DNA of 64,000 nucleotides, taken from an uncultured Acidobacteriota bacterium. GTDB lineage: Bacteria; Acidobacteriota; Thermoanaerobaculia; Multivoradales; UBA5704. This document shows positions 41,671 to 63,000 of the stretch, piece by piece. Under the pieces are notes generated by a model. The model was not told where the DNA came from. It worked only from the letters and a program-made list of their open reading frames with translations, and did no database searches. The stretch spans positions 958,397 to 1,022,396 of the forward strand of contig CAVWNC010000004.1 in NCBI GenBank assembly GCA_963756455.1. Reading direction: 5' to 3'. The translations under genes were made by a program, and so were the position numbers. How positions within the stretch are numbered: the first letter of the stretch is position 1; every line of letters begins with the position of its first letter.

Positions 41671-41757
41671 GGGCCTAAAAATACCATGTGTCGTTGGGCT
41701 GCTCCGCTCGGCGGCAGGACCGGCACGGCATCCAGGCCTCGGCTATACTCCGCGGCG

Positions 41758-45023: not shown

Positions 45024-45045
45024 TACCTAGCGCCGCAGAAGGTGG

Positions 45046-46306
45046 AGTGAGGCTTTCCCCCGAGGACGCCATGTTCTGGCGTTTCCACGGTCCGGTCACG
45101 CCGCAGACGATCGCCCTCGTGACCTTCCTCGACGGCGTTCCGGACCTCGATCGCCTGAGAGAGCTCTTCGCGCGGACGATCGTCGCCTATCCGCGCATGC
45201 GGAGCGTCGTTCGGCCGGGCGTCCGGCCAGGAGAGCCGCCGACCCTCGTGCCGCTCCCGAAGATCGACCTCCGCCAGCACGTCGAGGCCCTCACCCTGCC
45301 TGAGACGGCCGGCCGCGCCGACCTTGAAGCGGAGCTCGCCCGCCGCTTCTCGACGCCGCTCCCCATGGACCGGCCGCTCTGGCACCTCCTCCTCGTCGCG
45401 CTCCCGGTGTCGGGAGCCCCGGCGGCGATCCTTTGGCGGATTCACCACCTGGTGGCCGACGGCGTCACGGCCCTCGCCTTCGCGCACGAGATCCTCGGCG
45501 GCGCCGACGAGCGCCGCGGCTCGCCGCCGCCGCCCGCGCTGCCGGCCTCCCGGCCGCGGCCGCGGCTCCTCGCCCTCCTGCGCAGCCTGCGCGCCTGGGG
45601 CCGGCTCGACCGCGGGCCCAGCCCGCTCAACGGGGAGAGCTCGCCGGAACGCCGGTTGACCCCCGTCGACTTGGACCGCGCGACGCTCCGCCGGCTGATG
45701 CGCCGCTTCGACGCCAGCTCACTTGAAGTCCTGCTCAACGTCCTCACCTCCGCCCTGCGGCGCTACCACGAGCATCATGGCGCGCCGGTCGACCGCGACC
45801 TCACCGTCGTGATCCCGTACGCCGATCAACCGCCGTCGCGCGCCCGCTCCCAGGGGAACTTCTTCGGCTCGCGGTTCGTCCGCCTGCCCTTGGGAGAGCC
45901 CGACCCGGGCCGCCGCTTCGACGCTCTCCGGCGCGCCGTCCGGGAGGCGGGAGAGAACGGGGTGGACGAGCTGCTGCGTTTCGTCAGCGGCAAGTTCCAC
46001 CGCCTGCCCCGTGGCTTCCAGCGCGACCACCTGTGGGACTTCGCCCTGCGCTGCAACGCCGCCTGCACCGTGCTGCCCAGCCGGCTGGGCAAGGCGCGGC
46101 TCGACGGGCACGCGATCAGCGCCCACTATGCCGGCGCCGCCCTCCCCTTCTCGCACGGCGCCGCCTTCACCTTCCTCGCAACCGAGAACGCCCTCCGCGG
46201 GATGATCGTCTCCGATCCGGCGATCGTGCCGGACCCCGAAAATCTGCGCGACTTCCTTCTCGCGGGAGTGGAGGAGCTCGCTACTCGGCAGGCTCGCGGG
46301 GCGTGA
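45046..46306 (+). CDS. WS/DGAT-family acyltransferase (wax ester synthase / diacylglycerol acyltransferase-like)
   Basis: MRLSPEDAMFWRFHG (N-terminal LSPxD..F motif) and the catalytic HHLVADGVTA (HHxxxDG). It is the real 3' portion of track ORF 43154..46306. The GTG start at 45046 follows a GGTGGA RBS. Confidence 0.65.
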
Positions 46307-47585
46307 TTCCCTGCCGGTCGGCCTCGCCGGCGATCCGGCGGATGTATTCGGCCTGCCAGCGGAGCCCCCCGTCGCTGGCGACCGCCGGGGTCTGCCGGAA
46401 GGCTTGCGCTTCGTAGGCGGGGACGGCGGGGATCTCCAGGTCGGCGAGCGGCCGGCGCTCCCGCCGCCGGGCGAGCGCCGCCTCGACGCTCGGCCGCAGC
46501 ACCTGGGCCTTGAGCCGCTCCCGCTCGGCCTCCTGGGCCTGGAGCTCCGGCATCACCGTGCGGGCGAAGAGGCCGAGAGACTCACAGAGATGGTCGTGCC
46601 GGGTCTTTCCTACCGGCTGCAGGAGGACCACCTGGTCGACCCCGGCTTCGGCGAAGCCGAGCAGATAGTCGCGCAGCTGCCGCGGTGTGCCGATGCCGAG
46701 CTGGCGTCCGGGGAGGGCCGGCCGCACCTTCTGGAACTCTTCCCAGAGGTCGCTCCGGCCCGGCACGTGGGTGCCGTGGCCGTAGTAGTACGAGAGGGCG
46801 AACTGGAAGAACTGGAAGCCCTCGATGGCGCGCTCGCGCGCGACGCCCTCGTCCTCGTGGCAGAAAAAGGGGGTCACCATCGCTACGTTGGGGTTGACCG
46901 CGTAGCCGATCGGCGAGCACTCGCGGCGGAAGATCGTGTAGTACTCCTCGGTCCAGCGCTTCGCCTCGTCGGGGTCGATGAAGGCGAAGGACAGCGCTCC
47001 CAGGCCCAGCCGGGCGGCGAGCCGGATGGATTCGCGCCGCGTGCATGCCATCCAGAGGGGCGGGTGCGGCTTCTGGAGCGGCTTGGGGACGACGTTGCGG
47101 CAGGGCATCGAGACGTGCCGGCCGGCCGCGCCGCCGTAGGGCTCCATCACCATCATGTCGGTGATCTGCTCCAGCGCCTCGCGCCACATCTCGTGGCGCT
47201 CCTGCCGGTCGATGCCGAAGGCTTCGAGCTCGACCCGCGAGGCGGATTCGCCGGTCCCGAATTCGACCCTGCCGTTCGACACCAGGTCGAGCGTCGCGAT
47301 GCGCTCGGCGGCCCGGGCCGGGTGGTTGTAGCGGGGCGGCATCAGCATGACCCCGTGGCCGAGGCGGATCGTCCGGGTGCGCTGGGAGGCGGCGGCCAGG
47401 AACACCTCCGGCGCCGACGAGTGCGAGTACTCCTCGAGGAAGTGGTGCTCGGCGAGCCAGACGTGGTCGATGCCGAGGCGGTCGGCGAGCTCGATCAGGT
47501 CGAGCGCCTCGGTGAACAGGCGATGCTCGCCGCCTGCGCTCCACGGCCTTGGCAGTTGGTGCTCGCAGAAGAGCCCGAGCTTCAT
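46281..47585 (-). CDS. Luciferase-like (LLM-class) flavin-dependent oxidoreductase
   Basis: MKLGLFCEHQLPRPW...IDHVWLAEHHFLEEYSHSSAPEVFLAAASQRTRTIRLGHGV... is typical of LLM monooxygenases. Start ATG 47583-47585 overlaps the PKS-B TGA 47582-47584 (ATGA). Confidence 0.8.
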   Translation of the reverse strand: MKLGLFCEHQLPRPWSAGGEHRLFTEALDLIELADRLGIDHVWLAEHHFLEEYSHSSAPEVFLAAASQRTRTIRLGHGVMLMPPRYNHPARAAERIATLDLVSNGRVEFGTGESASRVELEAFGIDRQERHEMWREALEQITDMMVMEPYGGAAGRHVSMPCRNVVPKPLQKPHPPLWMACTRRESIRLAARLGLGALSFAFIDPDEAKRWTEEYYTIFRRECSPIGYAVNPNVAMVTPFFCHEDEGVARERAIEGFQFFQFALSYYYGHGTHVPGRSDLWEEFQKVRPALPGRQLGIGTPRQLRDYLLGFAEAGVDQVVLLQPVGKTRHDHLCESLGLFARTVMPELQAQEAERERLKAQVLRPSVEAALARRRERRPLADLEIPAVPAYEAQAFRQTPAVASDGGLRWQAEYIRRIAGEADRQGITPREPAE

Positions 47586-50500
47586 TCGACGCTCCCGACG
47601 CTCCCCGAAGCCAGGCCGGCCCGGGGACCGAGGTGGAAGGAGAGCGAGCTCTCGCCGCGATCGATCCGCACGGTCGTCTCTTCAACCAGCGTCGGCCGTA
47701 AGACGGTGGGCGCGGACCCGAGGCCGCCCAAAACGCGGATCTCGACCCGGCTCTCCCCCACCGCAGGACCGCGGTGCGCAGGGATGGTGTAGCGGCCGAT
47801 GTGGATGGGCCCCGAGGCGAGCGGCATCCTCGTCGGATCGCGCGTCAGGTCACGCGTCGGATCGATGGGGAGGAAGGTGATCGTCCCGAAGTCCACGGGC
47901 TTGCCGTCGACGGTGACCTCGCCTTCGACCGCGGCGCGCTCGACGTCGGCGAGGAAGCCCGAGGCACGCAGCCAGTCGTGGAGCCGCTCCTTCCAGGCGG
48001 CGAGCACCGGATCGCCGGCGGCGAGGCCGGCGCCGTGGGCGCCCCAGGGGAAGACATGGAGCTCGGCCGGCACCCGGGCGCGGCGCAGGGCGCCGAAGAA
48101 AGCGAGGCTGTGCTCGACCGCCACCGCCCCGTCCTCGCCGGTGTGGAAGAGGAAGGTCGGCGGCGTGCGCTCGTCGACATGGCGGTCGGCCGACAGGGCG
48201 TCGAGAAGCGCCGGATCCGGATCGTCGCCTAGGAGGCTCCGCCGGGTGACCACGCTGAGCCACTCCATGAGGCTGATCACCGGGTAGGCGAGGACGAGGA
48301 AGTCGGGCCGGCAGCCGTACCGCTCGACGGGGTCCCCGGCGGCCGCATCCCCGTCGTCGTGGCGGGTGGCGAGCGTCGCCGCGAGGTGCCCGCCGGCCGA
48401 AAAGCCCATCACTCCCACTCGGCGGGGCGAGACTCCGAGGTCGGCCGCCCGGCTGCGGACGTAGCGCACGGCGCGCCGCACATCCTCGAAGGGTGCTGGG
48501 TGGCGATAGCGCGGCGCCAGCCGATAGCCGAGGACCACGGCCGTCACCCCGAGCGTCTGGAGCCACTCGGCGACCTGGTGCCCTTCGGTGTCCATGGCGT
48601 GGGCCGAGTATCCCCCACCGGGGCAGACGACGATCGCGGTGCCCGTCGCAAGCTCCGACGCCGGAGTGTAGATGCGGAGGGTCGGCCGGTCCTCCGGCTC
48701 CGAGCCGAGGCTCCCCGGGGCACCCTCGGGCCAGAGGAGGAGGGGGACCGGGCCAATGCCGCCCTGCGTCCCGTCCACCGGCACTCGCGGCAATGGCGGC
48801 TCCGAAGCCTCCAGCTGGCGCTGCCAGAAAGCGCCGCCGGGGCCGGCCGCAACGGCGGCCGGGGTGGCAACCGGAGCGGCAGCCTGGGCGGAGGGCGGCG
48901 AGCCGAGACGGCCGGCGACGTAGGCGGCGAGCGATGCGACGCTCCGGTGGTCGAGGAAAGCCGTCGAGGCGAGCGAGAGCCCCAGAGCCGCCTCCAGCCG
49001 GCGGGTGAGCTCCGTCGCCACCATCGAGTCCATCCCGAGCTCCAGGAAGTCCTGCCGCGGCGCGGGCGGCTCGGGGAGGGCGAGGGCGGCCTGGACCTCA
49101 CGCTCGATCCGGGAGCGGATGAAGGCGAGGCGCTCCTCGGGCGTCGACCCGACCGCGGCCGGGCTCGCCTCCGGAGGCTCCTGCCGCCCGCTCCCGGTCC
49201 CTATCCAATGCCGGCGCCGTTCGAAGGGGTAGGTCGGAAGCTCGACCCGGCGCCGCCGCCAGGGCCGATCCCAGGCTGCGAAGTCGGGGGCGAACCCTTC
49301 CACGAAGAGCCGGGCGACGGCCTGGGCGATCTGCCGATCCGCATCGCCCTCAACATCGCCCTCGTTCAAGCCGGCGATCCGAACCATCCCTTCAGGGAGC
49401 GCGCCGTCCCCGGCGGCGGTCTCGGGACCGACGGTCAGGAGGACGCCACAGCCCGCCTCGATCAGGTCGTCTCCGGAGAGCGCCAGTCGCGCCGGCCCGG
49501 AGGCCCGCTCGCTCCAGGCGGCAAGCTCCGCGACCGACGGCCCCTGGGGGAACTGGGCGACGAGCCGGAATGCTTCCTCGGTGGCGAGCGCCCCCGCCGC
49601 CACCGCCGCCGCGTACTCCCCCACGCCGTCTCCCAGGACGACGTCGGGCTCGAACCCCCAGCTCCGCCAGAGGTCGGCCAGGGCCAGCTCCAGGGCGAGG
49701 AGGGCAGGCCCCGCCGCGAGCGGCGGGCCGCCCGCGAGTTGCTCACAACGCTCCATCTGCTCCTGGAAGACCGGCTGCGATCGGCGGAGCCCCCGGCCGG
49801 CGGCCGCGGGCGAGCCCGCCGCCTCTTGAAGCCCGGGAAAGAGCCAGGCACACCGCGGCCGCGCCGCCCGGCTGCTGCCGAGGGAGAGGCCGGGAACGAT
49901 CTCGCCCCGCGCGAGGCCATGGAGGAGCGCCCCGGCCTCGGCCGCCGACGCCGCGACCACGGCGGCCCGGTGCTCCAGGTGGCTGCGCCCGGTCCCGGCG
50001 GTGAAGGAGACGTCCGGGAGCGAGGCTTCCGGGTGCTCCAGAGGCTCCAGAAGCCGGCGCGCGTAGCGCTCGGCCAGCTCCACCAGGGCCGGCCGGCTCT
50101 TGGCGGAGAGGACCAGGAGGTGGTGGGTCCGCTCCGCGGCCGGTTCCGCCGCTTCTTCCGGCGGGGGCGGGGCGGTCACGACGACGTGGGCGTTGGTGCC
50201 GCTGAAGCCGAAGGCGCTCACCGCCGCGATCCTCTCCTTCCGGGGCCACGGCGCGGCCTCGGCGAGCACCGAGAGGGGGAGGCGCTCCCAGTCGACGTGC
50301 GGGCTCGGGGTCTCGAAGTGCAGGTGCTTCGGGAGCCGCCCCCGCGAGAGGGCGAGCACGACCTTGATCAGCCCGGCGACCCCGGCGGCGGCTTCAAGGT
50401 GGCCGATGTTGGTCTTGACCGACCCCACGAGAAGCGGCCGGCCGGCCTCCCGTCCCTCACCGAAGACCGCCCCGGCCGCCCGTAGCTCGATGGGATCGCC

Positions 50501-53500
50501 CAGGCTCGTGCCGGTGCCGTGGGCCTCCAGGTAATCGACCGCCGCCGGCTCGACGCCGGCCTGTGCCAGGGCCTCGCGGAGGACCCGCTCCTGGGCCGGG
50601 CCGTTGGGCACTGTGAGGCCGCTCGCGGCGCCGTCGTGGTTGACCGCCGAGCCGGGGAGGAGGGCCAGCACGCGGTCGCCGTCGCGCCGGGCGTCGGCCA
50701 GGCGTTTCAGGACGACGACGCCGCAGCCCTCGCCTCGGACGTAGCCGTTGGCGCGGGCGTCGAAGGTCCGGCACCGCCCGTCGGGCGACAGCATGCCGGT
50801 CTTCGACATGTGGATCATGCCGCTCGGGCTGAGGATCGCGTTGACGCCGCCGGCGAGGGCGAGATCGCAGCGGCCGGAGCGCAGGTGGTCGCAGGCCAGG
50901 CTGACCGCCACGAGCGACGAGCTGCAGGCGGTGTCGATCGCCTGGTTCGGTCCCTGGAGCCCCAGGACGTGGCTGATCCGGCCGACCCCGGTGCTGTGCG
51001 CCGTGCCGGTGGCGAAATAGGTGTCCCCCAGGCCATCGCCGCGGGCGAGGAGCTCGCCGTAGTCGCTCGTGCTCAACCCCATGAAAACGCCCGTGCGGCT
51101 GTCCACCAGGCTCGCCGGGGCGATGCCGGCGTGCTCCAGGGCCTCCCAGCTGACTTCGAGGAGCCAACGATGCTGGGGGTCGAGGCTCGCCGCCTCGCGC
51201 GGGCTGATGCCGAAAAACGCCGCATCGAAGCGGTCGGCCTCGCCCAGGAACCCGCCGTCCCGGGTGTACATCTTCCCCGGCGCTTGCGGGTCGGGGTCAT
51301 AGAACGCCTCGCGGTCCCAGCGCTCGGGCGGCACCGGCCCGACGGCGTCCGTCCCGGTCTCCAAGAGCCGCCAGAAGGCGTCGAGGTCGGGTGCCTGGGG
51401 GAAGCGGCAGGCCATGCCGACGAGGGCCACGGGCTCAGCGGTCTCCGTCCCTGCCGACACCGCCGGCCGTGGACTGGACGGACGGACGACCGTCTCCTCT
51501 CCCGCCTCCCCGAGCTGGCCGAGGAGGTGGTCGGCGAGACGATGGACGCTCGGGTAGTCGAAAGCGAGGGTTGAGGGCGGCGGCGGGGCGAGTGCGAGGT
51601 CGCGCTGGACGCGGTTGCGCAGCTCGACCGCCATCAGCGAGTCCATGCCGAGGTCGAAGAAGCCGGCCTCCCCATCCGGCGGGGAGGCGAGCTGCAAGAC
51701 CTCGACGACCTGGCGCTCCAGGTAAGCGCGTAGCTCGTCCTGGCGTCCCTTGGGGGAGACGGCGCGCAAGCGGGCGAGCGACGCGGCTTCGCGGTTCGGG
51801 CGGGTCGGGAGCGCCGGAGGAGGCGGCAGGAGATCCTCGACCAGCGAGGCCGACCGCGCTCCTGCTCGGGCGGCGAAGCGCCGCCAGTCGACCGCCGCCA
51901 CCAGGGCCTGGGGTGGACCGCCGGCGAGCAGGCGGCCGAGAGCGCCGAGGGCCTCGCCGGCCGCGAGGAGCTCGCCGCCCTGGGCACGATAGGCACCGGC
52001 GGCCTGAGGGTGGGAGGCCGCCATCCCTCCGATGCCGGCGATGTCCCAGAGCCCCCAATCGACCGCGAGCGCCGGCAGGCCGAGCCCGCGGCGGTGGTGC
52101 GCGAGAGCATCGAGAAAGGCGTTGGCGGCGGCGTAGTTGGCCTGCCCCGGCGCTCCCAGGACCGACACCGCCGACGAGTAGAGGACGAAGAAGTCGAGCG
52201 GATCTTCCCGCGTCAGAAGGTGGAGAGCCCAGGCGCCGCGGAGCTTGGGCACCAGGACGGCGTCGAAACGCTCGGCGCTCTGCTGGGCGAGGACGCCGTC
52301 GTCGAGGGTGCCGGCGGCGTGGACGACGCCGTGGAGGGGCGCCGACCGCCGCAGCTCGGCGAGGATCTCCGCCAGCCTCGCCTCGTCGGCCACGTCGCCC
52401 AGGAAGCAGCGGACGGCGCAGCCGCCGGCGCGGAGGGCGTCGAGCCTCGCCTCAACCGCGGGGCCGGCCGGCCGGCGCGCCAGGAGAGCGAGGCTCCGCG
52501 CTCCTGCCGCGGCCAGCCACTCGGCCGTCCGGAGGCCCAGCGCCCCGAGCCCGCCGGCGATCAGGTAGGTGCCGTCGGTGCGGAATGCGAAGCGCTCCTC
52601 CCCCTGGGGCATCGGGAGCCGGACGAGCCGGGGCACGTAGCGGTTGCCGCCGCGAAGGACGACCTCCTCCTCAGGGCCGGGGGCAAGGAGCTCCGCAATC
52701 AGGAGATCGACCTCTTCCGCTCCCAGCGGGTCCGCAGTGAGGTCGATCCGCGCGCACCGCGCCGCCGGCCGTTCGAGGGCGATCACCCGCCCGAGCCCCC
52801 AGACGGGCGCCTGGGCCGGGTGGACCGGAGCCTCGCCGTTCCCTTCTCCATTCCCGATATCCTGCACGCCGCGGGTCAGAAGCCAGAGGGGGACGCTCCG
52901 CCACTCCGCCGCCCCCTCGACTGCCCGCGCGAGATGGAGGACGCTCCGGCAGCCCCGCTCCTGGGCGGCGAGGAGCCCGTCGCCGGAGAGCTCGCCCTCG
53001 GGCGTCTCCGCCCAGAGGTGGAGGATGCCGCGGCAGGGCCGGCCGAGCGCCCGGGCCTCTTCCCGCACCTCGTCCAGGAGGCGGGCGTAGCCGGCCTCGT
53101 CCGCGGGGGGGATCGCCGTCTCGCGCGGGCCGGTCCGCGCGTAGGACTCCCCGGGGAGGGCTACGAAGCACACCTCGCCCACGGCCCCAAGCCGGGCGGC
53201 GAGATCGCGCCCCAGGGAGCCGCCGTCGGCAAAGAGGAGCCAGGAGCCCTCCTCCCCGGGGCCCGCCGCCAACAGTGCCGGCTCCGCCGTCTCCGGCCGT
53301 GGGCGAGGCCGCCATTCCAGCCCGTAGAGCGGCAGGCTGTCCTGCCGCTCCGCGTAGGGGACGAGGTTTTCGAGTTGGGCGCGGTTCGCGCGATCGAGCT
53401 CCGCCCAGCGGCTCGCGGGCTCCTTCCTGGCGGTCAAGAGGACGTAGCGCGCGAGGCCCCTCTCCAGCATCCGCCCGAGCTGGTGGTAGGAACGGGCCGA

Positions 53501-56500
53501 CGCGGCGACGTTCCGGTCGACCTCCCGGGCCCCATCGGCGACCTCCGTCGCGTTGCGCTCGAAGTCCTCGTCATGGAGAAAGTTGGCGATCTCCCGGCTG
53601 ATGTCGATCGACTCGGTCAGCCGGAGACGGTGGGTCGAAAGGAGCTGCACCCACTCTTCGCAGGTCGAGAAGAAGGACGAGGTCTCCTCGTGTTCGATGC
53701 CGGTGTCCGAGGTCGAGAGGAAGTCGGCAAGGACGAGGAGGCCGCCGTCGTCCAGATGCCGCTCGATGTTCGCGAAGAGGCGTGCCTTCTCGCGGATGTG
53801 GTGGGCCACCTCGAAGCCGAAGACGAGCTGGTAGCGGGCGGGAAAATCGTCCTCCGCGCTGTTCCGGTGGAAGATCTCGACCCTGGAGGCGAGCCCTTCC
53901 TCGGCCAGCCGGCGGCGACCGAAGGCCGCCTGCTCCCCTGAGAGGGTATAGCCGTGGAGCCGGAGGTGGGAGTGGGCCTGGGCGAGGAGGACGAGGTCGC
54001 TCCCCATCCCGCAGCCGAAGTCCAGGGCGCTCGCGATCTCGGCGAAGGGGACCTTCGCGAAGAGCGCCCGGCGCATCTCCTGCTGCGCCCGGCGCACCAG
54101 GGCGGCCTGCTCCGGATAGCGCTCCGGCTGGCCCATCGCCCGCACCCAGGAGAACCCCGGGACGCGCTGCGGCAGCGGCCCGAAGGTCAGGAAGGGGGCC
54201 TCCGTCCGCCCTTCGAGCCCGCGGAGGAGGGCATCGTAGTAGTCGGCGACGACGGTCCCCGGAGTGGCGTCAGAGCTTCCGGAGCCGCCGGGCGTACCAG
54301 AGGGGACGCGGACCCAGACGCGACGCCGCGCGAAGGGATAGGTGGGGAGGGTGAGCTTGCGGCGCGGCCAGGGCCGGTCCCAGGCGGCGAAGTCGGGGGT
54401 GACGCCGCGGACGTAGAGCCTCGCCACGGCCTCGGCGAGCTGGCGTCCCTCGCTCCGCTCCCGGCGCAGGGAGGGGACCAGCTCCGGCCGCGGCACCGAC
54501 TCCGGCCAGGCGCGGCCGGCCATGCCTGTGAGCACCGCCTGCGGACCGACTTCGAGGAGCACCCCGACGCCTTCCGCGGCGAGGGTGCGGACGCTCTCCC
54601 CGAACTGCACGGGCTCCCGGGCGTGCCGCCGCCAATAGAGAGCTTCCAGAACCTGGCCGGCCGCCGGTGGCCGGCCGGTCAAGTTGGTCACCAGGAGCCG
54701 CTGGGCGGGGCGGAAGTCGACGACGCTCGCAGCGGCTTCGAAAGCGTCGAGGACCGGCTCGACGAGGACGGAGTGGAAGGCGTGAGAGGTGGCCAAGACC
54801 TTGCCGCGCACGCCGCGCTCCGCGAGCCGCGCCACGAGAGCCAGGAGCCTCGCCTGCGGACCGCTCACCACGACGTGGGCGCCGTTGTCGGCGGCCAAGG
54901 CCAGCCCCTCCTCTCGCGCCAGCTCCCGCTCGATCGTCCCGACGTCAGTGAAGAGAGAGGCCATGCCGCCGCCGGCCGGCAGGCTTCCCATGAGCTCGGC
55001 GCGCCGGGCGATCAACGCTAGCCCCTCTTCGAGGGTGAAGACGCCGGCGACGACCGCCGCCGCGTACTCCCCGACGCTGTGGCCCAGGACCACGTCCGGC
55101 TCGACGCCCCAGCTCCGCCAGAGCTCGGCCAGGGCCACCTCGACGGCGAAGAGCGCCGGTTGGGTGTAGCGGGTGTCGTCCAGGAGAGCCGGGGCGCCAT
55201 TGCCTCCCGCCGCGGCGAAGAGCACGTCGAGGAGCGGGCGGTCGAGCTTCCCCCGGAGCCCCTGGGCACAGCGCTCAAGGATATCCCGGAAGACCGGCTG
55301 GGTGCGGTGGAGCTCGCGGGCCATCCCCGGGTACTGGCTGCCCTGTCCGGGGAAGAGCCAGGCGACCTTGGGCCGGCCGCGGACCTGGCCGCGGAAGAGA
55401 CCGGGAGCGCCCTCGCCCACCCGCAGCTGGCCGAGGAGCTCCCGCGCCTCGGCCGCCGAGCCGGCGACGAGGGCCGCCCGCTCTTCCAGGGGGTGGCGCC
55501 CCACCCCGAGGGTGTAGGCGACGTCCGCCAAGTCGGCGGTAGGATGCTCGGCGAGCCAGGCGAGCTGGCGGCCTGCCAGCGCGGGGAGGGCGGCGGCGGC
55601 GCGTCCCGAGAGGGTCCACACGTGCTCGCCGCGCTCGGCCGGTGCGGCGGGCGTTATCGGAGCCTGCGACGGTATCGGAGCTTCGGCCAGCACCACGTGG
55701 GCGTTGGTGCCGGCGAAGCTGAAGGCGCTCACCCCGGCGATCCGCGGACCCGCGGGCCAGGGGACGGGCTCGGCCGCGACCCGCAGCGGCAGCCGCTCCC
55801 AGGGGATGTGGGGATTCGGGCGGACGAAGTGGAGCTGCCGAGGGATGACGGGCTTCTGGAGCGCGAGGACGACCTTGATCAGCCCGGCGATCCCGGCCGC
55901 CGCTTCGAGGTGGCCCAAGTTGGTCTTGACCGCCCCGACGTAGAGCGGCCGGCCAGGCTCCCGGCCGGAGCCGAAGGCGGCGCCGGCGGCTTCCATCTCG
56001 ATCGGATCGCCCAGGCTCGTCCCCGTGCCGTGGGCTTCCAGGTAGGCGACGTCTTTGGGCTCGACCCCGCTCCGCTTCAGAGCCTCGCGGATCACCCGTT
56101 CCTGGGCGCGGCCGTTGGGCACCGTGAGGCCGCTGCTCGCCCCATCCTGGTTGACGGCGCTGCCCCGGACCACCGCGAGCACCGGGTCGCCGTCTCGCTG
56201 CGCGTCCGCCAGGCGCTTGAGGACGACCGCGCCGCACCCTTCGCTCCGCGCATAGCCGTCGGCCGCGGCGTCAAAGGACTTGCAGCGGCCGTCCGGGGCG
56301 AGCATCCGGGCCTTCGAGAAGTTGATCATGGCGAGCGGGGTGAGGACGGCGTTGACGCCGCCCGCGAGCGCCAGGTCGCACTCCCGGGAGAGCAGGCTCC
56401 GGCAGGCGAGGTGCACCGCCACGAGCGACGAGCTGCAGGCGGTATCGATGGCCATATTGGGTCCTTCGAGGCCGAGGAGGTAGCTGATCCGGCCCACCGC

Positions 56501-57091
56501 CGCGCTGTGCGAGATCCCGGTGCCCAGGTAGGCGTCGACCGCCGCCTCCCCCTGCGCGGCGAGGAGCTGGCCGTAGTCGCTGGTGCTCAATCCCATGAAG
56601 ACGCCGGTGCGGCTGCCGAGCCGCGCTCCCGGCGCCTGGCCGGCGGCCTCCAGGGCCTCCCAGCTGATCTCCAGGAGGAGACGGTGCTGGGGATCGAGGC
56701 TTACCGCCTCGCGGGGCGAGATGCCGAAGAACTCAGGGTCGAAGAGATCCATGCGGTCGAGGAAGCCGCCGTAGCGGGTACAGATCTTCCCCGGCGCCTC
56801 GGGATCGGGATCGTAGTAGGCGTCGACGTCCCAGCGGTCCGGCGGCACCTCCCGGATGCCGTCGCGGCCGTCTTCCAGGAGCGCCCAGAAGGACGCGGGA
56901 TCGTCGCAGCCGCCGGGGAAGCGGCAGGCGACGCCGACGATCGCCACCGGCTCGCTGCGCTCCCCGTCGACGGCCGTTTCGAGCTCCCGCACCCGGGCCT
57001 GGAGCTTCTGGATGGCGCGCACGGCGTTGCGCAGCTGGTCCGCGGCGGGGCTTTTGGTGTCAGGCGTGCTGTCGGTCGTGGTGTCGGTCAT
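47582..57091 (-). CDS. Type I PKS 'PKS-B' (about 3170 aa): N-terminal docking, KS, AT(malonyl), cMT, KR, ACP, KS, AT-like(Ser->Gly), ACP, alpha/beta-hydrolase domain, C-terminal tail
   Basis: The true start MTDTTTDST... (ATG 57089-57091) overlaps the PKS-A TGA. The track's upstream 244 codons are an off-gene extension. KS1: EPVAIVGVACRFPGG, DTACSSSLVAVHLA, HGTGT. AT1: GHSVGEYAA with HAFH (malonyl-type). cMT: LDFGCGMGSD. KR: GTYLIAGGLGALG, GQANYAAAN. ACP: LGMDSL. KS2: EPVALVGMACRFP, DTACSSSLVAVSLAC, NIGHLEAAAG. AT-like 2: FPGLQEAAGS and GDGVGEY in place of GQGSQ/GHSxG. ACP2: LGMDSMVATEL. Esterase-like domain and tail: see the separate feature. Confidence 0.9.
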   Translation of the reverse strand: MTDTTTDSTPDTKSPAADQLRNAVRAIQKLQARVRELETAVDGERSEPVAIVGVACRFPGGCDDPASFWALLEDGRDGIREVPPDRWDVDAYYDPDPEAPGKICTRYGGFLDRMDLFDPEFFGISPREAVSLDPQHRLLLEISWEALEAAGQAPGARLGSRTGVFMGLSTSDYGQLLAAQGEAAVDAYLGTGISHSAAVGRISYLLGLEGPNMAIDTACSSSLVAVHLACRSLLSRECDLALAGGVNAVLTPLAMINFSKARMLAPDGRCKSFDAAADGYARSEGCGAVVLKRLADAQRDGDPVLAVVRGSAVNQDGASSGLTVPNGRAQERVIREALKRSGVEPKDVAYLEAHGTGTSLGDPIEMEAAGAAFGSGREPGRPLYVGAVKTNLGHLEAAAGIAGLIKVVLALQKPVIPRQLHFVRPNPHIPWERLPLRVAAEPVPWPAGPRIAGVSAFSFAGTNAHVVLAEAPIPSQAPITPAAPAERGEHVWTLSGRAAAALPALAGRQLAWLAEHPTADLADVAYTLGVGRHPLEERAALVAGSAAEARELLGQLRVGEGAPGLFRGQVRGRPKVAWLFPGQGSQYPGMARELHRTQPVFRDILERCAQGLRGKLDRPLLDVLFAAAGGNGAPALLDDTRYTQPALFAVEVALAELWRSWGVEPDVVLGHSVGEYAAAVVAGVFTLEEGLALIARRAELMGSLPAGGGMASLFTDVGTIERELAREEGLALAADNGAHVVVSGPQARLLALVARLAERGVRGKVLATSHAFHSVLVEPVLDAFEAAASVVDFRPAQRLLVTNLTGRPPAAGQVLEALYWRRHAREPVQFGESVRTLAAEGVGVLLEVGPQAVLTGMAGRAWPESVPRPELVPSLRRERSEGRQLAEAVARLYVRGVTPDFAAWDRPWPRRKLTLPTYPFARRRVWVRVPSGTPGGSGSSDATPGTVVADYYDALLRGLEGRTEAPFLTFGPLPQRVPGFSWVRAMGQPERYPEQAALVRRAQQEMRRALFAKVPFAEIASALDFGCGMGSDLVLLAQAHSHLRLHGYTLSGEQAAFGRRRLAEEGLASRVEIFHRNSAEDDFPARYQLVFGFEVAHHIREKARLFANIERHLDDGGLLVLADFLSTSDTGIEHEETSSFFSTCEEWVQLLSTHRLRLTESIDISREIANFLHDEDFERNATEVADGAREVDRNVAASARSYHQLGRMLERGLARYVLLTARKEPASRWAELDRANRAQLENLVPYAERQDSLPLYGLEWRPRPRPETAEPALLAAGPGEEGSWLLFADGGSLGRDLAARLGAVGEVCFVALPGESYARTGPRETAIPPADEAGYARLLDEVREEARALGRPCRGILHLWAETPEGELSGDGLLAAQERGCRSVLHLARAVEGAAEWRSVPLWLLTRGVQDIGNGEGNGEAPVHPAQAPVWGLGRVIALERPAARCARIDLTADPLGAEEVDLLIAELLAPGPEEEVVLRGGNRYVPRLVRLPMPQGEERFAFRTDGTYLIAGGLGALGLRTAEWLAAAGARSLALLARRPAGPAVEARLDALRAGGCAVRCFLGDVADEARLAEILAELRRSAPLHGVVHAAGTLDDGVLAQQSAERFDAVLVPKLRGAWALHLLTREDPLDFFVLYSSAVSVLGAPGQANYAAANAFLDALAHHRRGLGLPALAVDWGLWDIAGIGGMAASHPQAAGAYRAQGGELLAAGEALGALGRLLAGGPPQALVAAVDWRRFAARAGARSASLVEDLLPPPPALPTRPNREAASLARLRAVSPKGRQDELRAYLERQVVEVLQLASPPDGEAGFFDLGMDSLMAVELRNRVQRDLALAPPPPSTLAFDYPSVHRLADHLLGQLGEAGEETVVRPSSPRPAVSAGTETAEPVALVGMACRFPQAPDLDAFWRLLETGTDAVGPVPPERWDREAFYDPDPQAPGKMYTRDGGFLGEADRFDAAFFGISPREAASLDPQHRWLLEVSWEALEHAGIAPASLVDSRTGVFMGLSTSDYGELLARGDGLGDTYFATGTAHSTGVGRISHVLGLQGPNQAIDTACSSSLVAVSLACDHLRSGRCDLALAGGVNAILSPSGMIHMSKTGMLSPDGRCRTFDARANGYVRGEGCGVVVLKRLADARRDGDRVLALLPGSAVNHDGAASGLTVPNGPAQERVLREALAQAGVEPAAVDYLEAHGTGTSLGDPIELRAAGAVFGEGREAGRPLLVGSVKTNIGHLEAAAGVAGLIKVVLALSRGRLPKHLHFETPSPHVDWERLPLSVLAEAAPWPRKERIAAVSAFGFSGTNAHVVVTAPPPPEEAAEPAAERTHHLLVLSAKSRPALVELAERYARRLLEPLEHPEASLPDVSFTAGTGRSHLEHRAAVVAASAAEAGALLHGLARGEIVPGLSLGSSRAARPRCAWLFPGLQEAAGSPAAAGRGLRRSQPVFQEQMERCEQLAGGPPLAAGPALLALELALADLWRSWGFEPDVVLGDGVGEYAAAVAAGALATEEAFRLVAQFPQGPSVAELAAWSERASGPARLALSGDDLIEAGCGVLLTVGPETAAGDGALPEGMVRIAGLNEGDVEGDADRQIAQAVARLFVEGFAPDFAAWDRPWRRRRVELPTYPFERRRHWIGTGSGRQEPPEASPAAVGSTPEERLAFIRSRIEREVQAALALPEPPAPRQDFLELGMDSMVATELTRRLEAALGLSLASTAFLDHRSVASLAAYVAGRLGSPPSAQAAAPVATPAAVAAGPGGAFWQRQLEASEPPLPRVPVDGTQGGIGPVPLLLWPEGAPGSLGSEPEDRPTLRIYTPASELATGTAIVVCPGGGYSAHAMDTEGHQVAEWLQTLGVTAVVLGYRLAPRYRHPAPFEDVRRAVRYVRSRAADLGVSPRRVGVMGFSAGGHLAATLATRHDDGDAAAGDPVERYGCRPDFLVLAYPVISLMEWLSVVTRRSLLGDDPDPALLDALSADRHVDERTPPTFLFHTGEDGAVAVEHSLAFFGALRRARVPAELHVFPWGAHGAGLAAGDPVLAAWKERLHDWLRASGFLADVERAAVEGEVTVDGKPVDFGTITFLPIDPTRDLTRDPTRMPLASGPIHIGRYTIPAHRGPAVGESRVEIRVLGGLGSAPTVLRPTLVEETTVRIDRGESSLSFHLGPRAGLASGSVGSVE
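48023..48690 (-). other. Terminal alpha/beta-hydrolase (esterase/lipase 'fold-3'-like) domain of PKS-B, followed by a 146-aa C-terminal region of unknown function (47585-48022)
   Basis: TLRIYTP...AIVVCPGGGYS (HGGG-type oxyanion motif, here PGGG), GFSAGGHLAA (GxSxG nucleophile), FLFHTGEDG and HVFPWGAHG (likely acid and His). No GxSxG...GxH canonical PKS TE pattern is present. The tail reads ...VTVDGKPVDFGTITFLPIDPTRDLTRDPTRMPLASGPIHIGRYTIPAHRGPAVGESRVEIRVLGG... Confidence 0.6.
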
Positions 57092-60000
57092 GGTTGGAGA
57101 TCGTCCGGCGAGAGGATCGCGGCGAGCTGGCGGCTCAGGAGGTCCGACAGCTGATCGGCGGAAAGCTCGTCGAGCCCGTCGCTCTCGGACGCCGCGGACG
57201 CCTGGGGGACGGCCTCCGGCACCGACGGCGCGGCGAAACGGGCGGCGGGGATCCCGTCCGGCGCCTCGGGCGCGGCAAGCTCGGGAGTCGAGGGCCGGTC
57301 GTCGAGGCGCTCGACCAGGTGGGCGGCGAGGGCGCGGACGCTCGGGTGGTCGAAAAGCGCCGTCGGCGAGAGCGCGCTCCCCAGCCGGAGCTCCTGGTTG
57401 ATGCGGTTGCGCAGCTCGACCACCATCAGCGAATCCATGCCGAGATCGAAGAGCCCGGCGTCCGGGGCGACCGGCGAGGGGAGGCCGAGGACCCGCATGA
57501 CCTCCTGGCCGAGGTACTCCATCAACAGGGAGAGACGCGCCTCCTCCGGGGCACGCTCCAGCCGGCGGCGGAGCCCCGAGCGCGCCGGCGTGCCGGGGCT
57601 CGCGGATGGGGCGGTCAGGACTTCGGCGAGGAAGGGCGGCACTCCCCTGCCGCCGAGCCTGTCCGCGAAGCGCCGCCAGTCGATCGGCAGGACGCCCACT
57701 TGGGAGCGGCCGCTCGCCAGGGCGCGACCGAGCGCCAGAAGCCCCTGCTCCGGCGCGATCCAGTCGAGACCGAGATCTGAAACCCGCGACTCCGCCCGGA
57801 CGGCGGCGCCGATCCCCGACCACGCTCCCCAGTTGATGCTTAAAGCCGGCAGGCCAGAGGCCCGGCGGTGGCGGGCCAGGAGGTCGAGGAAGGTGTTCGC
57901 CGCCGCGTGGTTCGCCTGCCCGCGATTGCCGAGGAGCGCGGCGGTACTGGAGAAAAGGACGAAGTGGTCGAGCGGGCGACCGGCGGTCAGCCGGTGGAGG
58001 TGCCAGGCCCCCTGCACCTTGGCGGCCAGAACCTCCTCGAAGCGCTGCCAGGTCTGGTTCAGGAGCGCGCCGTCCCGGAGGACTCCGGCCAGATGGAAGA
58101 CGCCGGCGAGCGGCCTGCTGTCCCGCGTCGCGCGCTCCAGCCAGCGGCGCACGTCAGACTCCTGCGAGACGTCTCCGGTGATCACCTCGATATCGATGGT
58201 GCCGGCGGTGTTGGCACCGAGCCGGCGCAGATCGTCCAGGGCCGCTTCGGCCTTGGGGCCGGGCGGCCGGCGGCCGGCAAGGAGCAGGTGACGCGCCCCC
58301 TGGGAGGCGAGCCAGCGGGCGACCGCCAGGCCGAGCCCGCCGAGGCCGCCGGTGAGGAGGAATGTCCCTTCGGGAGAGAAGGCGGGCGGCGCGGGCTCCC
58401 CCAACTCGCACCGCACGAGGCGGGGCACCCGCCAACGTCCGCCCCGCCGGGCGAGCTGGTCCTCACCCTCCGGCCGCAGGAGCTCCGCCGTCAGCGCGTC
58501 CAGAGCTCCCGAGGAGTCCTCGGCAGGGTCGCCGAGCCCCACCGCCTCGAAGTCCACCCGCCGGCAGGCGAGCTCCGGGTGCTCCAGGGCGAGCACCTTG
58601 GCGAGCCCCCAGATCGGCGCCTGGGCGAGGGAGTCGCAGGCCTCCTTAGCCGTCACCTGCGCTCCCCGGGTCACCACCCAGAGCCCTCCCTGGGCCAGCG
58701 CATCCCGACGCGCCAGGGCTACGGCGAGCGCCAGGAGGCTGCCGCAGCCGTGCCGGACATCGGAACTCAGAGTGTCAGCCGACTCGGTAAGGGTCTCGGC
58801 GGTCGGCGCCGCGTCGAGGCTCCACAGGTGGACGACCCCGCGGAGCGGCGGCGCCCCGGCGAACGCCTCGGCGAGGAGGCGCTCCCAGTCCCGCGCGTCC
58901 TCTCCGGGGAGACGGTAGCGATCCTCGCCGGTCCGCGCGTACCCCTTCCCCGGCTCGACGAGCGGCTCGACGAGAATGCAGCGCTGGCCGCGGCGGGCGA
59001 GTCGCTCTGCCAGGGCCGCCCCCACGGACGTCCGGTCCGCCGCGATCAGCCAGGAGCCGGCCGGCTCGGCCGGAGGCCGCCACTCCGGAGCGGCCCGCGC
59101 CACGAGGATCGCCTGGCTGTCCACCCCGGCGGGGGCGATCGCCACCGGTTCCCAATAGCCGGAGGCTTCGAAGGCGCGCGACCACCCCGCGGCGGAGAGG
59201 AGCGGATAGTCCGTCCGCAGCCCGTCGGCGAAACGCCACCAGCCCTCGAGAAGACCGAAGGTGAGATCGAGCCACCCCTGGGGACGGAGGCCCTCGACCA
59301 GAAGCAGCAGCCCGCCCGGCGCGAGCAGCCGGCGCACATGCTCGAGAGCCGCCCCGAGGTCGCGGGTGGCGTGGAGCACGTTGGCGGCGAGGACGAGGTC
59401 GAACGGCCCGGTCTCCCCCTGCTCGGAGGGCGGGCGTTCGAGGTCGAAGGTCCGATAGCGCACGAAGCCGTAGCCGGCGAAGCGCTGCCGCGCGGCGTCG
59501 AAGAAACCGGCCGAGACGTCGGTGTAGAGGTAGTCCACCCGCCCGGCGGGGAGGAGGGGGAGGATCGCCGCGGTCGTGGCGCCGGTGCCGGCGCCGACCT
59601 CCAGGACCCTCAGTCGCCGGCCGGCCGGGAGATCCCGCAAGGCGGCGGTCACGGTCTCCCCGGCCAAGCGGTTGAAGAGCCGAGGGCCGGCGGCCTCGCG
59701 GTAGAGATCCTCGACGCCCGGGCCGTCCGGGGGGAAAAGGAGGGCCAAGGGGTCGGACCGGCCGGTAAGGACGGACGCGAGATCGGCGCCGCAGCGGCCG
59801 AGGAGCGCCAGCTCGACCCGCGCCTCGGGGTAGCTCGCGGCGAGCTCTGCGCGCCGCCGCTCCGGGTCGACCGGCTCCGGGGCTCGCGCGACCTTCCATC
59901 CGTCGGCACGGGCGGCGGCGGGGGCGAGCCAGCCGGCCTCGCCCAGGATGGCGAGGAGGCGCCCCAGGAGCTTGCGATGCGCCGGAGCGATGCCCAGGCG

Positions 60001-63000
60001 AGAAGCCAGCTCCCCGGCCGTGAGCTCCCCGCCCGCGACCGACGCCCAGCCCAGAAGGTCGAGGGCACGCCAGGCGTACTCCTGGGCCAGGCGTTCGAGC
60101 CCGTCGGCGAGCGCCCGGGTGCGCGGGCCGACGCCCTCTTCTTCGGCCAAGGCCTCGGCCGTGGCCAGGAGGGTGGTCGCCAGGTCGCCCGGCGCGGGCC
60201 AGAAGTCGGCCGGCGCGTCCCGTTCTTCGAGATCCCGCCAGACCACCTCGTACATCCATTCGGCGAGAGCGTCGGGCCGCGCCGCGAGGAGGGTCCGGCG
60301 GCTGGCGCGCCGCGCCACGTAGCCGTCGATCCGCCCGCGGAGCCGGCCGTCCTCGCCCAGGAGCCGGAGGTCGGCGGTCAGGGTCTCGGCCTCCCTTCCG
60401 CCCTCCCGCAGCCGGACATGGCAGTAGAAGAGGGCCGGCACCGGCCCGTCGATCTCGATCTCCTGCCAGGCGAACGGCACGTAGGCCCCGGGCTCCCGCA
60501 ACCCAGAGCCGGCAGGCCCGGCGAGCTGAAGACAGGCATCGAGCACCGCGGGATGGATGGGGAAGTCCCCGCGTTCGAGCCCCGGGGGGACGCGGATCTC
60601 CCCCAGCGCCTCGCCCGGCCCCCGCCAGAGCCGGCCCACCCCCTGGAATCGCGGTCCCAGCTCGATGCCCGCGGCGGCGAAGACCGCGTAATCCATCGGC
60701 TCCTCGGACAGCCGGCCGCGAAGCTCGGCGAGGGTCGAGCCGCCGGGATCCGGTGACGCCTGCGGCGCGAGCGCCTCGCGGCGCCCCTCGATGTGGAGCA
60801 TCCAGGCACCGCCCGAGCCATCCAGGGGCCGACTGAAGATCTGGAACGCCCCCCCACCCTCCGCCTCCGGCTTGAGCACCAGCTGGAGCTCCCGCGCCGA
60901 CTCCGGATCGTCGAGTTGGAGCGCGCGCTGGATCAGGCCCTGCGACAGCCGGCACGGGCCGTGGACCGACGCCAGGACCATCGCCAGATGGCTCGCCGCC
61001 GGCACCACAACTGTGCCGAACACCCGGTGGTCGGAGAGCCAGGGCTGCCGGCGGCAGCTCACCTCCTGCGTATAGACCTCCTCCCCCGAGGCCAGATCCT
61101 GCCGCGTCCCCAGGAGCGGATGGGACGGCCCGCTCCCCACCGGCCGGCCCGGACGCCCAGGCTCCAGCCAGTAACGCTGGCGCTGGAAGGGATAGGTCGG
61201 CAGCCGCTCCCGGCGCCGTGGCCAAGGGTGGTCCCACGCCGCGAAGTCGAGAGTCCGGCCGTGGACGTGGAGGATCGCCGCCGCCGCTGCAAGCTGACCG
61301 TCTTCTTCAGCATCGCGGCAAAGCGAAGCCGCGAGGATCGGCGCCGGAACCGCCTCCGGCCAGCTCGCGGCCACCCTCATAGAAAGCACCGGATGGGGTC
61401 CCACCTCCAGGAGCAGCCCGACTCCCAGACGCGCCAAAGTCTCGACGCCCGAGCCCAGCGCCTCCCCCGTCTGGCTCCACACCGACATCCGTTCGACCTC
61501 AGGCCTCCCCGCCACTCCCGCCAATACCCCTTCCTCGAACGGCGTCACCCCCGCCACCACCGCCGCTGTGATCTCCCCCACTCCCTGCCCCGCTACCACT
61601 TCCGGTTCCTGCCCGAACGACCGCCAGAGCGCCGCCAACCCCAGCTCCACCGCCAGGAGCGCTGGACCCGCGGACCGCGCTTCGTCATCGAGGAGAGATT
61701 CCACGCCCAGCAGGCGGCTGCAACGCTCCACCACCTCGCGGAAGACCGGCTGGCTTGAGTAGAGCTCCCGGCCCATCCCCACGTACCCGCTTCCTTCACC
61801 CGGAAACAGCCAGGCCACCTTCGGCTGGGAACGGGAGCTCCCCCGGAACAGGCCTACCGCCGATTCCCCTCGCTCCAGGCAGCCCAGGAGCTCAACGGCC
61901 TCCAACGCCGTGCTCGCCACCAAACCCGCCCGCTCCTCCAGGTGGTTGCGCCCCACGCCCGCCGTATACGCCACGTCCCCCAGATCCGCCTCCGGATGGC
62001 TCAAAAGCCACGAACGATATCTCCCAGCGAGCGCCAACAACGCCTCCGGCTGGCGAGCTGACAGGACCAGGAGGTGAGCCCCCCGCGCCCCGCCCGCGCT
62101 CTCCCAACGGCGGGACGGCGGAGCCTCCTCCACGACCACGTGCGCGTTTGTGCCGCTGAACGCGAACGAGCTCACCCCGGCGACCTTCCGCCCCGCTGGC
62201 CACGGCGTCGCCTCGGACGACACCCGCACCGAGATCTCCTCCCAAGCCATCCGCGGCGACGGCTGACGGAAGTGCAGGTGCGCGGGAATGAGATCCCCCT
62301 CCATCGACAGCACCACTTTGATCAAGCCCGCGATCCCCGCTGCCGTCTCCAGGTGACCCATGTTCGTCTTGACCGAGCCCACGAGGAGCGGCGACCGCCG
62401 CGCCCGACCCGCCCCGAACACCGCCTCCAGGGATCGGATCTCGATCGGATCACCGAGTGCCGTCCCCGTCCCGTGCGCCTCCACATACGAAACCGCCTCC
62501 GGCTCCACCCCGCCCTGCGCCAAAGCCTCCCGGATCACCCGCTCCTGCGACGGACCGTTCGGCACCGTCAAGCCGCTGCTCCGACCGTCCTGGTTGACCG
62601 CCGAGCCGCGGATCAAACCCCAGATCCGGTCCCCGTCCCGCTCGGCGTCGCTCTGACGCTTGAGCACCACGATCCCGCAACCCTCCCCCCGCACGTAGCC
62701 GTCCGCCGCGGCGTCGAACGCCTTGCACCGGCCGTCCGGCGCCATCATCCGCGCTTTTGAGAAGTACACCGTCAGGTCCGGGCTGAGGATCGCGTTGACG
62801 CCACCGGCGAGCGCCACCTCGCAGTCCCCCGAAAGCAGCGCCCGGCAAGCCTGGTTGAGCGCCACCAGAGACGCGCTGCAAGCCGTGTCCACCGCCATGC
62901 ACGGACCCTGGAGGCCGTAGACGAAGCTCAGCCGACCCACCGCCGCGCTCAGCGCGTTGCCCGTCCCCAGGTACTGATCGATCGCCTCGACTCCCTGGGA

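Follow-up and report, generated by a model that had tools for sequence, protein, structure and literature searches.

The 64,000-nucleotide stretch analysed here ("the window": positions 958,397 to 1,022,396 of contig CAVWNC010000004.1, assembly GCA_963756455.1, from an uncultured bacterium of the Acidobacteriota) carries, on its minus strand, the final three modules of a modular polyketide synthase (PKS) of the cis-acyltransferase (cis-AT) type. The acyltransferase (AT) of the middle module is intact and of the malonyl type, whereas those of the two flanking modules have been reduced to stubs, which have lost the nucleophilic serine, the catalytic histidine motif and the entire small subdomain. 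Because these elements are gone, the stubs cannot be acylated, and both are catalytically dead. The modules that house them look elongation-competent, and we consider it reasonably probable that they are loaded with malonyl units in trans. Among the conceivable donors, the embedded AT of the neighbouring module is favoured, a tentative choice to which we would give clearly less than an even chance.

Organization of the synthase

Most of the window has a G+C content of 70-75%, and its minus strand is filled between 47.6 and 64 kb by two very long open reading frames (ORFs), PKS-A and PKS-B, with a G+C content at third codon positions (GC3) of 0.87-0.88. Together they extend over more than 16 kb without interruption. 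The visible part of PKS-A comprises the tail of a ketoreductase (KR), an acyl carrier protein (ACP), a ketosynthase (KS), an AT stub, a dehydratase (DH), a C-methyltransferase (C-MT), a KR, an ACP and a C-terminal docking tail. PKS-B continues with KS, malonyl-AT, O-methyltransferase (O-MT), KR and ACP (module 1), followed by KS, AT stub and ACP (module 2), an esterase of the BD-FAE family and a C-terminal beta domain. The stop codon of PKS-A overlaps the start codon of PKS-B in an ATGA, and the stop codon of PKS-B overlaps the start of a monooxygenase gene in the same way; because of these overlaps, the three genes are considered to form one operon.

Pfam matches for the KS, AT, DH, methyltransferase (MT), KR and ACP domains reach E values of 1e-197, which shows that the motifs quoted are not chance strings. 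Indeed, all eight peptide strings listed in a preliminary description of this DNA occur verbatim in the two long minus-strand ORFs. The interval given there for them, 50500-61500, includes GHSVGE, HAFH, LEVGAGTGATT and LDFGCGMGSD, but the four strings from the stubs (GQGVGEI, FPGEGSGYVGMG, GDGVGEY and FPGLQEAAGS) lie outside it.

The nearest relatives of PKS-A in a homology search are cis-AT PKSs, in agreement with the earlier statement that this is not a classical trans-AT system. Trans-AT PKSs have no embedded AT, and a full AT is present in PKS-B module 1. As expected of cis-AT modules, all three have an intact KS and an intact ACP; a working AT, however, is found in only one of them. The search with PKS-A returned generic PKS matches only, with identities of up to 54%, and a scan of 185,579 species genomes with the O-MT region yielded no close orthologue of the locus (best match about 50%, none above 52% identity).

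Two acyltransferases are reduced to stubs

The full-length AT of PKS-B module 1 carries FPGQGSQ (at 55354), DTRYTQ, GHSVGE (55084-55067), the arginine motif IARRAELM (55012-54986) and HAFH (54784-54773). Since DTRYTQ, GHSVGE and HAFH are all present, it is assigned to the malonyl type by motif rules for malonate specificity (PMC11672594), and the canonical malonyl-AT of the preliminary description is thereby confirmed. A six-frame search of the whole window found no further AT besides this domain and the two stubs.

Stub A, in PKS-A, reads FPGEGSGYVGMG (61806-61771), GQGVGEI (61590-61570) and LPTYPF (at 61203); the corresponding strings of stub B, in PKS-B module 2, are FPGLQEAAGS (49840-49811), GDGVGEY (49633-49613) and LPTYPF (at 49240). 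The nucleophilic serine, encoded by AGC in the intact AT, is replaced by glycine in both (codon GGA in stub A, GGC in stub B), and the histidine preceding it is altered, too (GQG and GDG, respectively). The oxyanion motif GQGSQ has become GEGSG in stub A and is unrecognisable in stub B. In the column of the carboxylate-binding arginine (R117 of E. coli FabD), stub A retains an arginine (VAGR vs. IARR) and stub B has a phenylalanine.

That neither region can form an acyl-enzyme had already been concluded from the Ser-to-Gly changes. Both had also been called AT-sized, which proved to be incorrect: from AWLFPG to LPTYPF..W, i.e., over AT and post-AT linker, the stubs measure 219 and 218 residues compared to 353 in the intact AT, and about 135 residues are absent from each in all. 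In the alignment, both stubs show two in-frame deletions, one of about 19 residues near the N terminus and one of about 115 residues in the middle of the domain. The latter removes the catalytic histidine motif (HAFH/YASH) and the entire ferredoxin-like small subdomain, and its junctions lie at about 61518-61477 in stub A and 49564-49523 in stub B. Of the AT large subdomain, the stubs retain the first third and the last strand-helix, together with both flanking linkers.

The check proposed earlier, a comparison with AT profiles and structures as opposed to linker or docking folds, places the stubs in the AT core. With the Pfam AT model (PF00698; 319 positions, cut-off 32.7 bits), stub A scores 71.7 bits over positions 2-117 and stub B 51.4 bits over positions 64-116; both exceed the cut-off, over the N-terminal third of the profile only. 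Our own AT profile (349 positions, built from 80 full-length ATs) is matched by stub A at positions 1-113 and 255-349 and by stub B at positions 66-118 and 241-349, the part from 114/119 to 240/254 being missing. For the segment from the KS-AT linker through stub A to the post-AT linker, an AlphaFold2 model based on an alignment of 20 sequences has a predicted local distance difference test (pLDDT) score of 88.7 and a predicted template modelling (pTM) score of 0.88, and its confidence is low solely at the deletion junction. In Foldseek searches this model superposes on KS-AT didomains of cis-AT PKSs with query-normalized TM scores of 0.73-0.84; CurL (4mz0) ranks first with 0.84, and modules 3, 5 and 2 of 6-deoxyerythronolide B synthase (DEBS) reach 0.75-0.80, which again sets the line apart from classical trans-AT systems. 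The structural alignment takes about 434 columns for 317 residues, the signature of a missing insert. Profiles and model thus identify the stubs as remnants of the AT large-subdomain core and not as mere linker or docking folds. They most likely persist as scaffolding that keeps the KS-linker architecture together.

Stub A and stub B are 49.5% identical to each other, and each is 56-60% identical to the intact AT. An origin of both stubs from one shared deletion and subsequent module duplication was considered and is unsupported, as the identity between them is no higher than that to the intact AT.

Truncated acyltransferases in other synthases

A profile of both stubs was searched against 1.84 billion representative proteins. 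The matches are mostly multi-module PKSs, and several alignments cross the deletion junction without a break. Domains were annotated in 265 proteins (2 from the window, 120 related to PKS-A and 143 retrieved with the stub profile), a sample biased to relatives of this locus, in which frequencies are indicative only. Its 633 complete modules include 599 with a full AT, 17 with a truncated AT and 17 without AT (about 3% each for the latter two). In the 12 truncated ATs whose motif is readable, the serine is always lost, and glycine, aspartate or glutamate stands in its place. The truncated ATs follow a common deletion pattern, the small subdomain being lost with or without the histidine motif. 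Modules of the order KS, AT stub, DH, C-MT, KR, ACP, as in PKS-A, are also found in a metagenome protein (P0025) and in Nostoc sp. WHI (P0090); the association of stubs with C-MT modules is weak (p = 0.026) in this biased sample, and no claim is drawn from it.

The JGI metagenome contig Ga0683615_0003167 (locus L001; 25 kb) carries a small related cluster that encodes a monooxygenase, an acyl-AMP ligase, an ACP-KS-DH-cMT-KR-ACP protein, a KS-AT-ACP-KS-ATstub-ACP-KS-ATstub-DH-ACP protein and an EthD protein. The former PKS protein is 46% identical to PKS-A from DH to ACP and has about 46 residues at the site of the stub, which amounts to a complete loss of the AT; the gene next to it encodes two truncated ATs along with a full one. 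All three states of the AT (absent, truncated and intact) are seen in this one locus, and no discrete AT was found on the contig. Its monooxygenase was considered as an orthologue of the one in the window, an idea that was dropped at an identity of only 25%.

A related arrangement was met in the genome scan with the O-MT. In about 16 cyanobacterial loci (L011-L017, L019, L021-L024, L030, L032, L035, L036), a KS-AT*-ACP protein is encoded directly upstream of a KS-AT-OMT-KR-ACP protein, AT* being an AT without 60-75 residues (the small subdomain). The active site of AT* reads GHS in some copies and GYG, GQG, GDG, GQN, GSN, GQD or GDS in others; the counterpart in Moorena has an intact AT. Every KS of the KS-AT*-ACP proteins retains Cys-His-His. 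Such decay of the AT with maintenance of the KS is expected if the modules still condense with malonyl-ACP supplied from elsewhere. A search up to 10 kb from the match detected no stand-alone AT ORF at any of 49 O-MT loci, and no AT gene is annotated anywhere in 50 kb around the cluster on plasmid4 of Calothrix brevissima NIES-22 (L069). The third protein of the cyanobacterial cluster (about 2250 residues, KS-AT-KR-ACP) has a length that would allow for CurM-like sulfotransferase-thioesterase domains; a gene for adenosine 5'-phosphosulfate (APS) kinase is close by, and the cluster resides on plasmids in Calothrix and Tolypothrix. Neither a product nor a published description of the KS-AT*-ACP family was found.

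The occurrence of equivalent stubs in independent genomes also argues against an artefact of sequencing or assembly as the origin of the deletions and of the Ser-to-Gly changes. Repetitive modular PKS genes are prone to collapse in short-read assemblies. However, the three KS-AT regions of the window share only 68-72% DNA identity, with a longest common exact run of 29 nt, and of the residues retained in each stub, about 40-45% are different in the intact AT. Moreover, the deletions are in frame, and the neighbouring histidine is changed as well. We regard an artefact as very improbable indeed.

Probable competence of the modules for elongation

Cys-His-His is conserved in all three KS domains and the serine of GxDS in all ACPs, the DH of PKS-A carries both HxxxGxxxxP and DxxxQ, and no pseudogene marks were found in the PKS genes. 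Because KS, ACP and tailoring domains are intact, both stub modules probably still extend the chain.

The preliminary description had offered, as an alternative to loading by a trans-AT, that these modules are non-extending or skipped. Such modules might be stalled or bypassed, in a line that has been shortened or is decaying. This explanation would fit the fact that only one of the three visible ATs is alive, the divergence of the stubs, which are as far from each other as from the intact AT, and the esterase terminus, for which there is no PKS counterpart; nor was any close orthologue of the cluster found that would show it to be conserved. The KS domains point the other way: non-elongating KS domains (KS0) typically lack the histidine of HGTGT (PMC7327777), which is present in every KS here. 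A full set of DH, C-MT and KR would be pointless without condensation, and the long unbroken reading frame, with its strong GC3 bias and coupled start and stop codons, does not suggest decay. Furthermore, comparable stub modules with intact KS persist across many cyanobacterial genera.

A further sign of decay might be seen in the KR of PKS-A, which has a histidine in place of the catalytic tyrosine of short-chain dehydrogenases/reductases (SDRs). According to a review, this tyrosine is "sometimes" histidine in KR domains (PMC7327777). In 263 homologous PKS proteins (PKS-A excluded), the KR domains of C-MT modules have histidine in 13 cases and tyrosine in 7, compared to 4 and 465 outside C-MT modules (Fisher's exact test, p = 1.4e-17); the variant occurs in P0003, P0007, P0011, P0014, P0039 and P0041, among others. 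It is thus regular in C-MT modules, and its interpretation as decay was rejected. We found no description of a KR histidine variant tied to C-MT modules. With both sides considered, we think it improbable that the stub modules are non-extending, and the earlier alternative is disfavoured.

Possible source of the malonyl units

If both stub modules extend the chain, they would have to receive malonyl units in trans. The preliminary description had left only a trans-AT encoded elsewhere for this case; a third option, which it did not mention, is loading of the neighbouring ACPs by the intact AT that lies between the two dead ones. This malonyl-AT is located directly between the two dead-AT modules. 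The orphan ACP of PKS-B module 2 shares a polypeptide with it, and the orphan ACP of PKS-A has to dock beside it, at the adjacent KS, for handing over the chain. Because of the order dead AT, working AT, dead AT, with one orphan ACP on the same polypeptide and the other docking next to it, the embedded AT would be the most economical donor.

The same premise of a dead stub loaded in trans is shared by an explanation that differs in the donor only: both orphan ACPs could be loaded by the housekeeping FabD or by a discrete AT dedicated to the cluster, the gene of which would lie upstream of the window. The line would then be a true cis/trans hybrid, in which the stubs might serve as a docking surface. 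In FK228 biosynthesis, AT-less modules are reportedly serviced by FabD. Trans-acting ATs are an established solution for AT-less modules (reviewed in PMC11907408) and can complement cis modules with an inactivated AT (PMC7327777). The upstream part of the cluster lies beyond the window, and one of the proteins surveyed, P0002, carries two stubs but lacks an intact AT, which calls for an external donor in at least some systems. On the other hand, no AT ORF other than the embedded one was found in the window, nor was one detected on the L001 contig or around the O-MT loci and the Calothrix cluster, within the distances given above. We also know of no case in which a docking role of an AT remnant has been demonstrated. 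An external donor ranks next after the embedded AT and is, for this line, rather improbable.

Several points weigh against the embedded AT as donor, and against extension by the stub modules in the first place. Extension is predicted from sequence. The cluster continues past position 64000, and a dedicated trans-AT gene is possible there. The mutual divergence of the stubs is as compatible with relaxed constraint as with a maintained scaffold. Since P0002 contains truncated ATs only, a neighbouring embedded AT is not a general solution. The KR histidine of PKS-A or the unprecedented esterase fusion could, in spite of the arguments above, indicate a rearranged and partly defunct line. Finally, we know of no modular PKS for which it was demonstrated biochemically that modules share an embedded AT.

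Methyltransferases and predicted chemistry

The two MT domains, both described as C-methyltransferases earlier, turned out to be of different types. The MT of PKS-A matches the structure of the CurJ C-MT (5thy) with an E value of 5.2e-75 over residues 14-387 of a 431-residue query. Its motifs include LEVGAGTGATT (59604-59572) and a histidine in NVLHAT (NxLH; about 59388-59359), and its N-terminal subdomain resembles Pfam HTH_51 weakly (22.1 bits, cut-off 50). The MT of PKS-B, with the motif LDFGCGMGSD (54025-53996), is matched over its full length by the O-MTs StiE (6ecx, E value 1.5e-76) and StiD (6ecw, 3e-70), and it has no match to CurJ at E values up to 0.001. It sits between AT and KR, and the resulting KS-AT-OMT-KR-ACP layout is shared with about 40 O-MT loci, including one in Moorena producens 3L (L056). 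The MT of PKS-B is accordingly predicted to methylate the beta-hydroxyl group. Because it is an O-MT, one C-methyl and one O-methyl group are expected instead of two C-methyl branches. The earlier claim that methyl branches derive from S-adenosylmethionine (SAM) thus holds for the MT of PKS-A, but not for that of PKS-B, which makes no branch.

If both stub modules extend the chain with malonyl units, PKS-A would introduce an alpha-methyl branch derived from SAM, PKS-B module 1 would add a beta-methoxy and module 2 a beta-keto unit, and the product would then be released hydrolytically by the esterase.

Terminal esterase and neighbouring genes

Instead of a thioesterase (no match to PF00975 was obtained at the C terminus), PKS-B ends in an esterase domain in which the catalytic triad is conserved: serine in GFSAGGH (48406-48386), aspartate (48145-48122) and histidine (48046-48026). 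The C-terminal 385 residues or so share 45-51% identity with the mature portion of free-standing "acetyl esterase/lipase" proteins of the BD-FAE family, which are about 420 residues long. The signal-peptide-like N terminus of the latter is replaced in PKS-B by the ACP and an Ala/Pro-rich linker. The free-standing homologues are apparently secreted, and some are fused to pectate lyase or polygalacturonase domains. None of the 59 homologues matched is fused to a PKS. The fused esterase is a probable release domain, a role assigned from this one sequence.

Taken as a whole, the picture would be that of one embedded malonyl-AT serving three modules on two polypeptides, with the neighbouring ATs whittled down to inert scaffolds in a natural, frozen intermediate between cis-AT and AT-less lines, and with a secreted-type carbohydrate esterase of the BD-FAE family recruited for release. 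That all of these elements hold together is possible, yet on balance unlikely, somewhat more so than the choice of donor on its own.

The monooxygenase encoded downstream of PKS-B belongs to a widespread and highly conserved family. The idea that esterase and monooxygenase were captured as a pre-existing operon was rejected, as homologues of the former occur in unrelated contexts and homologues of the latter have no esterase neighbour. The closest homologues of the monooxygenase (69-71%) are encoded in two metagenome loci (L067 and L068), where two ABC1 kinase genes follow; one contig adds genes for a WS/DGAT (wax ester synthase/diacylglycerol acyltransferase) protein and a phosphopantetheinyl transferase (PPTase), and the other adds genes for an AprA-like MT, an ACP and a thioesterase (TE). 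In the window, two ABC1 kinases and a WS/DGAT protein are likewise encoded between 40.5 and 46.3 kb, on the plus strand and converging on the monooxygenase gene. This co-occurrence hints at a lipid product of the PKS that is handled by the ABC1 and WS/DGAT enzymes. The plus-strand ORFs in this region (40480-43410, 42969-45023 and 43154-46306) overlap in three frames, and their boundaries are tentative, frameshifts being possible.

Other biosynthetic genes are present at lower positions in the window. A giant nonribosomal peptide synthetase (NRPS) gene of at least 7508 codons (3-22526, minus strand) runs off the window start, and its Pfam matches comprise 8 condensation, 7 adenylation and 6 carrier domains. 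Divergent from it, two tandem genes for MacB-like/FtsX permeases of 868 and 819 residues (22456-27579, plus strand) may encode exporters for one of the clusters. A class II lanthipeptide synthetase, LanM (DUF4135 and LANC_like; 35014-38397, minus strand), is encoded between NRPS and PKS; a gene for its precursor peptide was not identified. The G+C content drops to 62-65% at about 28000-34000, compared to 70-75% elsewhere, and several ORFs of this stretch have no Pfam match; it includes a gene for an AbiEi-antitoxin-like regulator (31799-32491) and may be an acquired island that separates the clusters.

Table 1. Positions and supporting evidence of the PKS genes, their domains, the adjoining monooxygenase gene and the Calothrix cluster. 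Positions refer to the window, except for the last row.
Feature	Positions	Strand	Evidence and remarks
PKS-A	57088..64000	-	3' part only, gene leaves the window; 2303 residues visible; GC3 0.88; translation, Pfam
KS of PKS-A visible module	62119..63393	-	Cys-His-His intact: DTACSA, EAHGTGT, NMGHLE; translation, Pfam
AT stub A and post-AT linker (PKS-A)	61165..61827	-	Alignments, Pfam AT, own AT profile, AlphaFold2 model, Foldseek
DH of PKS-A	60280..61134	-	Pfam PKS_DH_N and PS-DH; HRVFGTVVVP 61029-61000; HPAVLDACLQ
C-MT of PKS-A, CurJ type	59080..60153	-	CurJ 5thy; Pfam Methyltransf_12, 79.5 bits
KR of PKS-A	57790..58389	-	His for SDR catalytic Tyr, GQANHAAAN 57921-57889
Terminal ACP of PKS-A	57295..57549	-	LGMDSL 57444-57415; docking tail after
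PKS-B	47582..57091	-	3169 residues; translation, Pfam
Intact malonyl-type AT (PKS-B module 1)	54311..55375	-	Pfam AT positions 2-317 of 319; own profile 1-349, 440 bits
O-MT of PKS-B module 1, StiD/StiE/CurL type (predicted)	53342..54211	-	StiE 6ecx, StiD 6ecw
KS of PKS-B module 2	50168..51436	-	Cys-His-His intact
AT stub B and post-AT linker (PKS-B module 2)	49202..49861	-	Alignments, own AT profile, Pfam AT
ACP of PKS-B module 2	48905..49138	-	LGMDSM 49039-49010
BD-FAE/Abhydrolase_3 esterase and beta domain of about 100 residues, fused to ACP	47585..48745	-	Pfam BD-FAE, 88.6 bits
Luciferase-like monooxygenase	46281..47585	-	Pfam Bac_luciferase; homologues 60-72% identity
Calothrix brevissima NIES-22 plasmid4 locus (L069)	120211-135950		Three PKS genes and APS kinase among plasmid genes

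Comparison with known systems

Loss of AT function, or of the AT itself, is a known and recurrent phenomenon in cis-AT lines, and this locus adds another case. The closest published case that we found is irumamycin: the AT of its last module (M12) reads GHG instead of GHS, and according to the authors' proposal, the ACP of this module reaches the neighbouring malonyl-AT (PMC11672594). Like the present line, PKSs of the irumamycin/venturicidin type are cis-AT systems in which the AT of the final module lacks the nucleophilic serine and a malonyl-AT module precedes it. However, the irumamycin AT is poorly conserved in all motifs without a reported large deletion, whereas about 135 residues are deleted here. 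Moreover, in irumamycin the last module is affected and release is by a TE, in contrast to two modules flanking a working AT and a BD-FAE esterase, and the irumamycin producer is an actinomycete, unlike the present organism.

In trans-AT PKSs, such as those for bacillaene, disorazole and leinamycin, KS and KS-AT-linker fold are likewise present without a working AT (PMC11907408), and the ACP is loaded by an AT outside the module. Unlike these systems, the present line has an intact embedded AT, relatives of the cis-AT type and a large piece of AT core that passes the Pfam threshold, and there is no discrete AT within the window. Short AT remnants are said to have been noted after the KS in the leinamycin system.

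The cyanobacterial KS-AT*-ACP loci resemble the present one in that a minimal stub module adjoins an O-MT module with an intact malonyl-type AT (GHSVGE), the small subdomain is deleted, the serine is lost in many copies, the KS triad is kept and no discrete AT is located nearby. They differ in the smaller deletion (about 60-75 residues), after which the region following the histidine motif is kept, and in the GHS of some copies; furthermore, their stub module precedes the O-MT module and resides on its own polypeptide, and their O-MTs are 44-48% identical to that of the window.

That a cis module with a dead AT can be elongation-competent if given another AT, as proposed here, is illustrated by DEBS module 6, in which a Ser-to-Ala AT mutant is complemented in trans by the disorazole AT or KirCII (PMC7327777). 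There, however, the AT is of full length and was inactivated by an engineered point mutation, and a free-standing AT was added; in the present case, the loss is natural and involves a large deletion. For the methyltransferases, CurJ offers the counterpart of the C-MT of PKS-A, and StiD and StiE (stigmatellin) and CurL (curacin) share the O-MT in its KS-AT-OMT-KR-ACP layout, the O-MT of the window being at most about 50% identical to that of any genome locus.

Where ATs of a cis-AT line are dead or missing, predictions of the product from the sequence become unreliable; such losses also bear on the evolution of AT-less (trans-AT) synthases. With one working AT between two dead ones, the locus described here provides a clean test case, in which the sharing of an embedded AT would be directly measurable.

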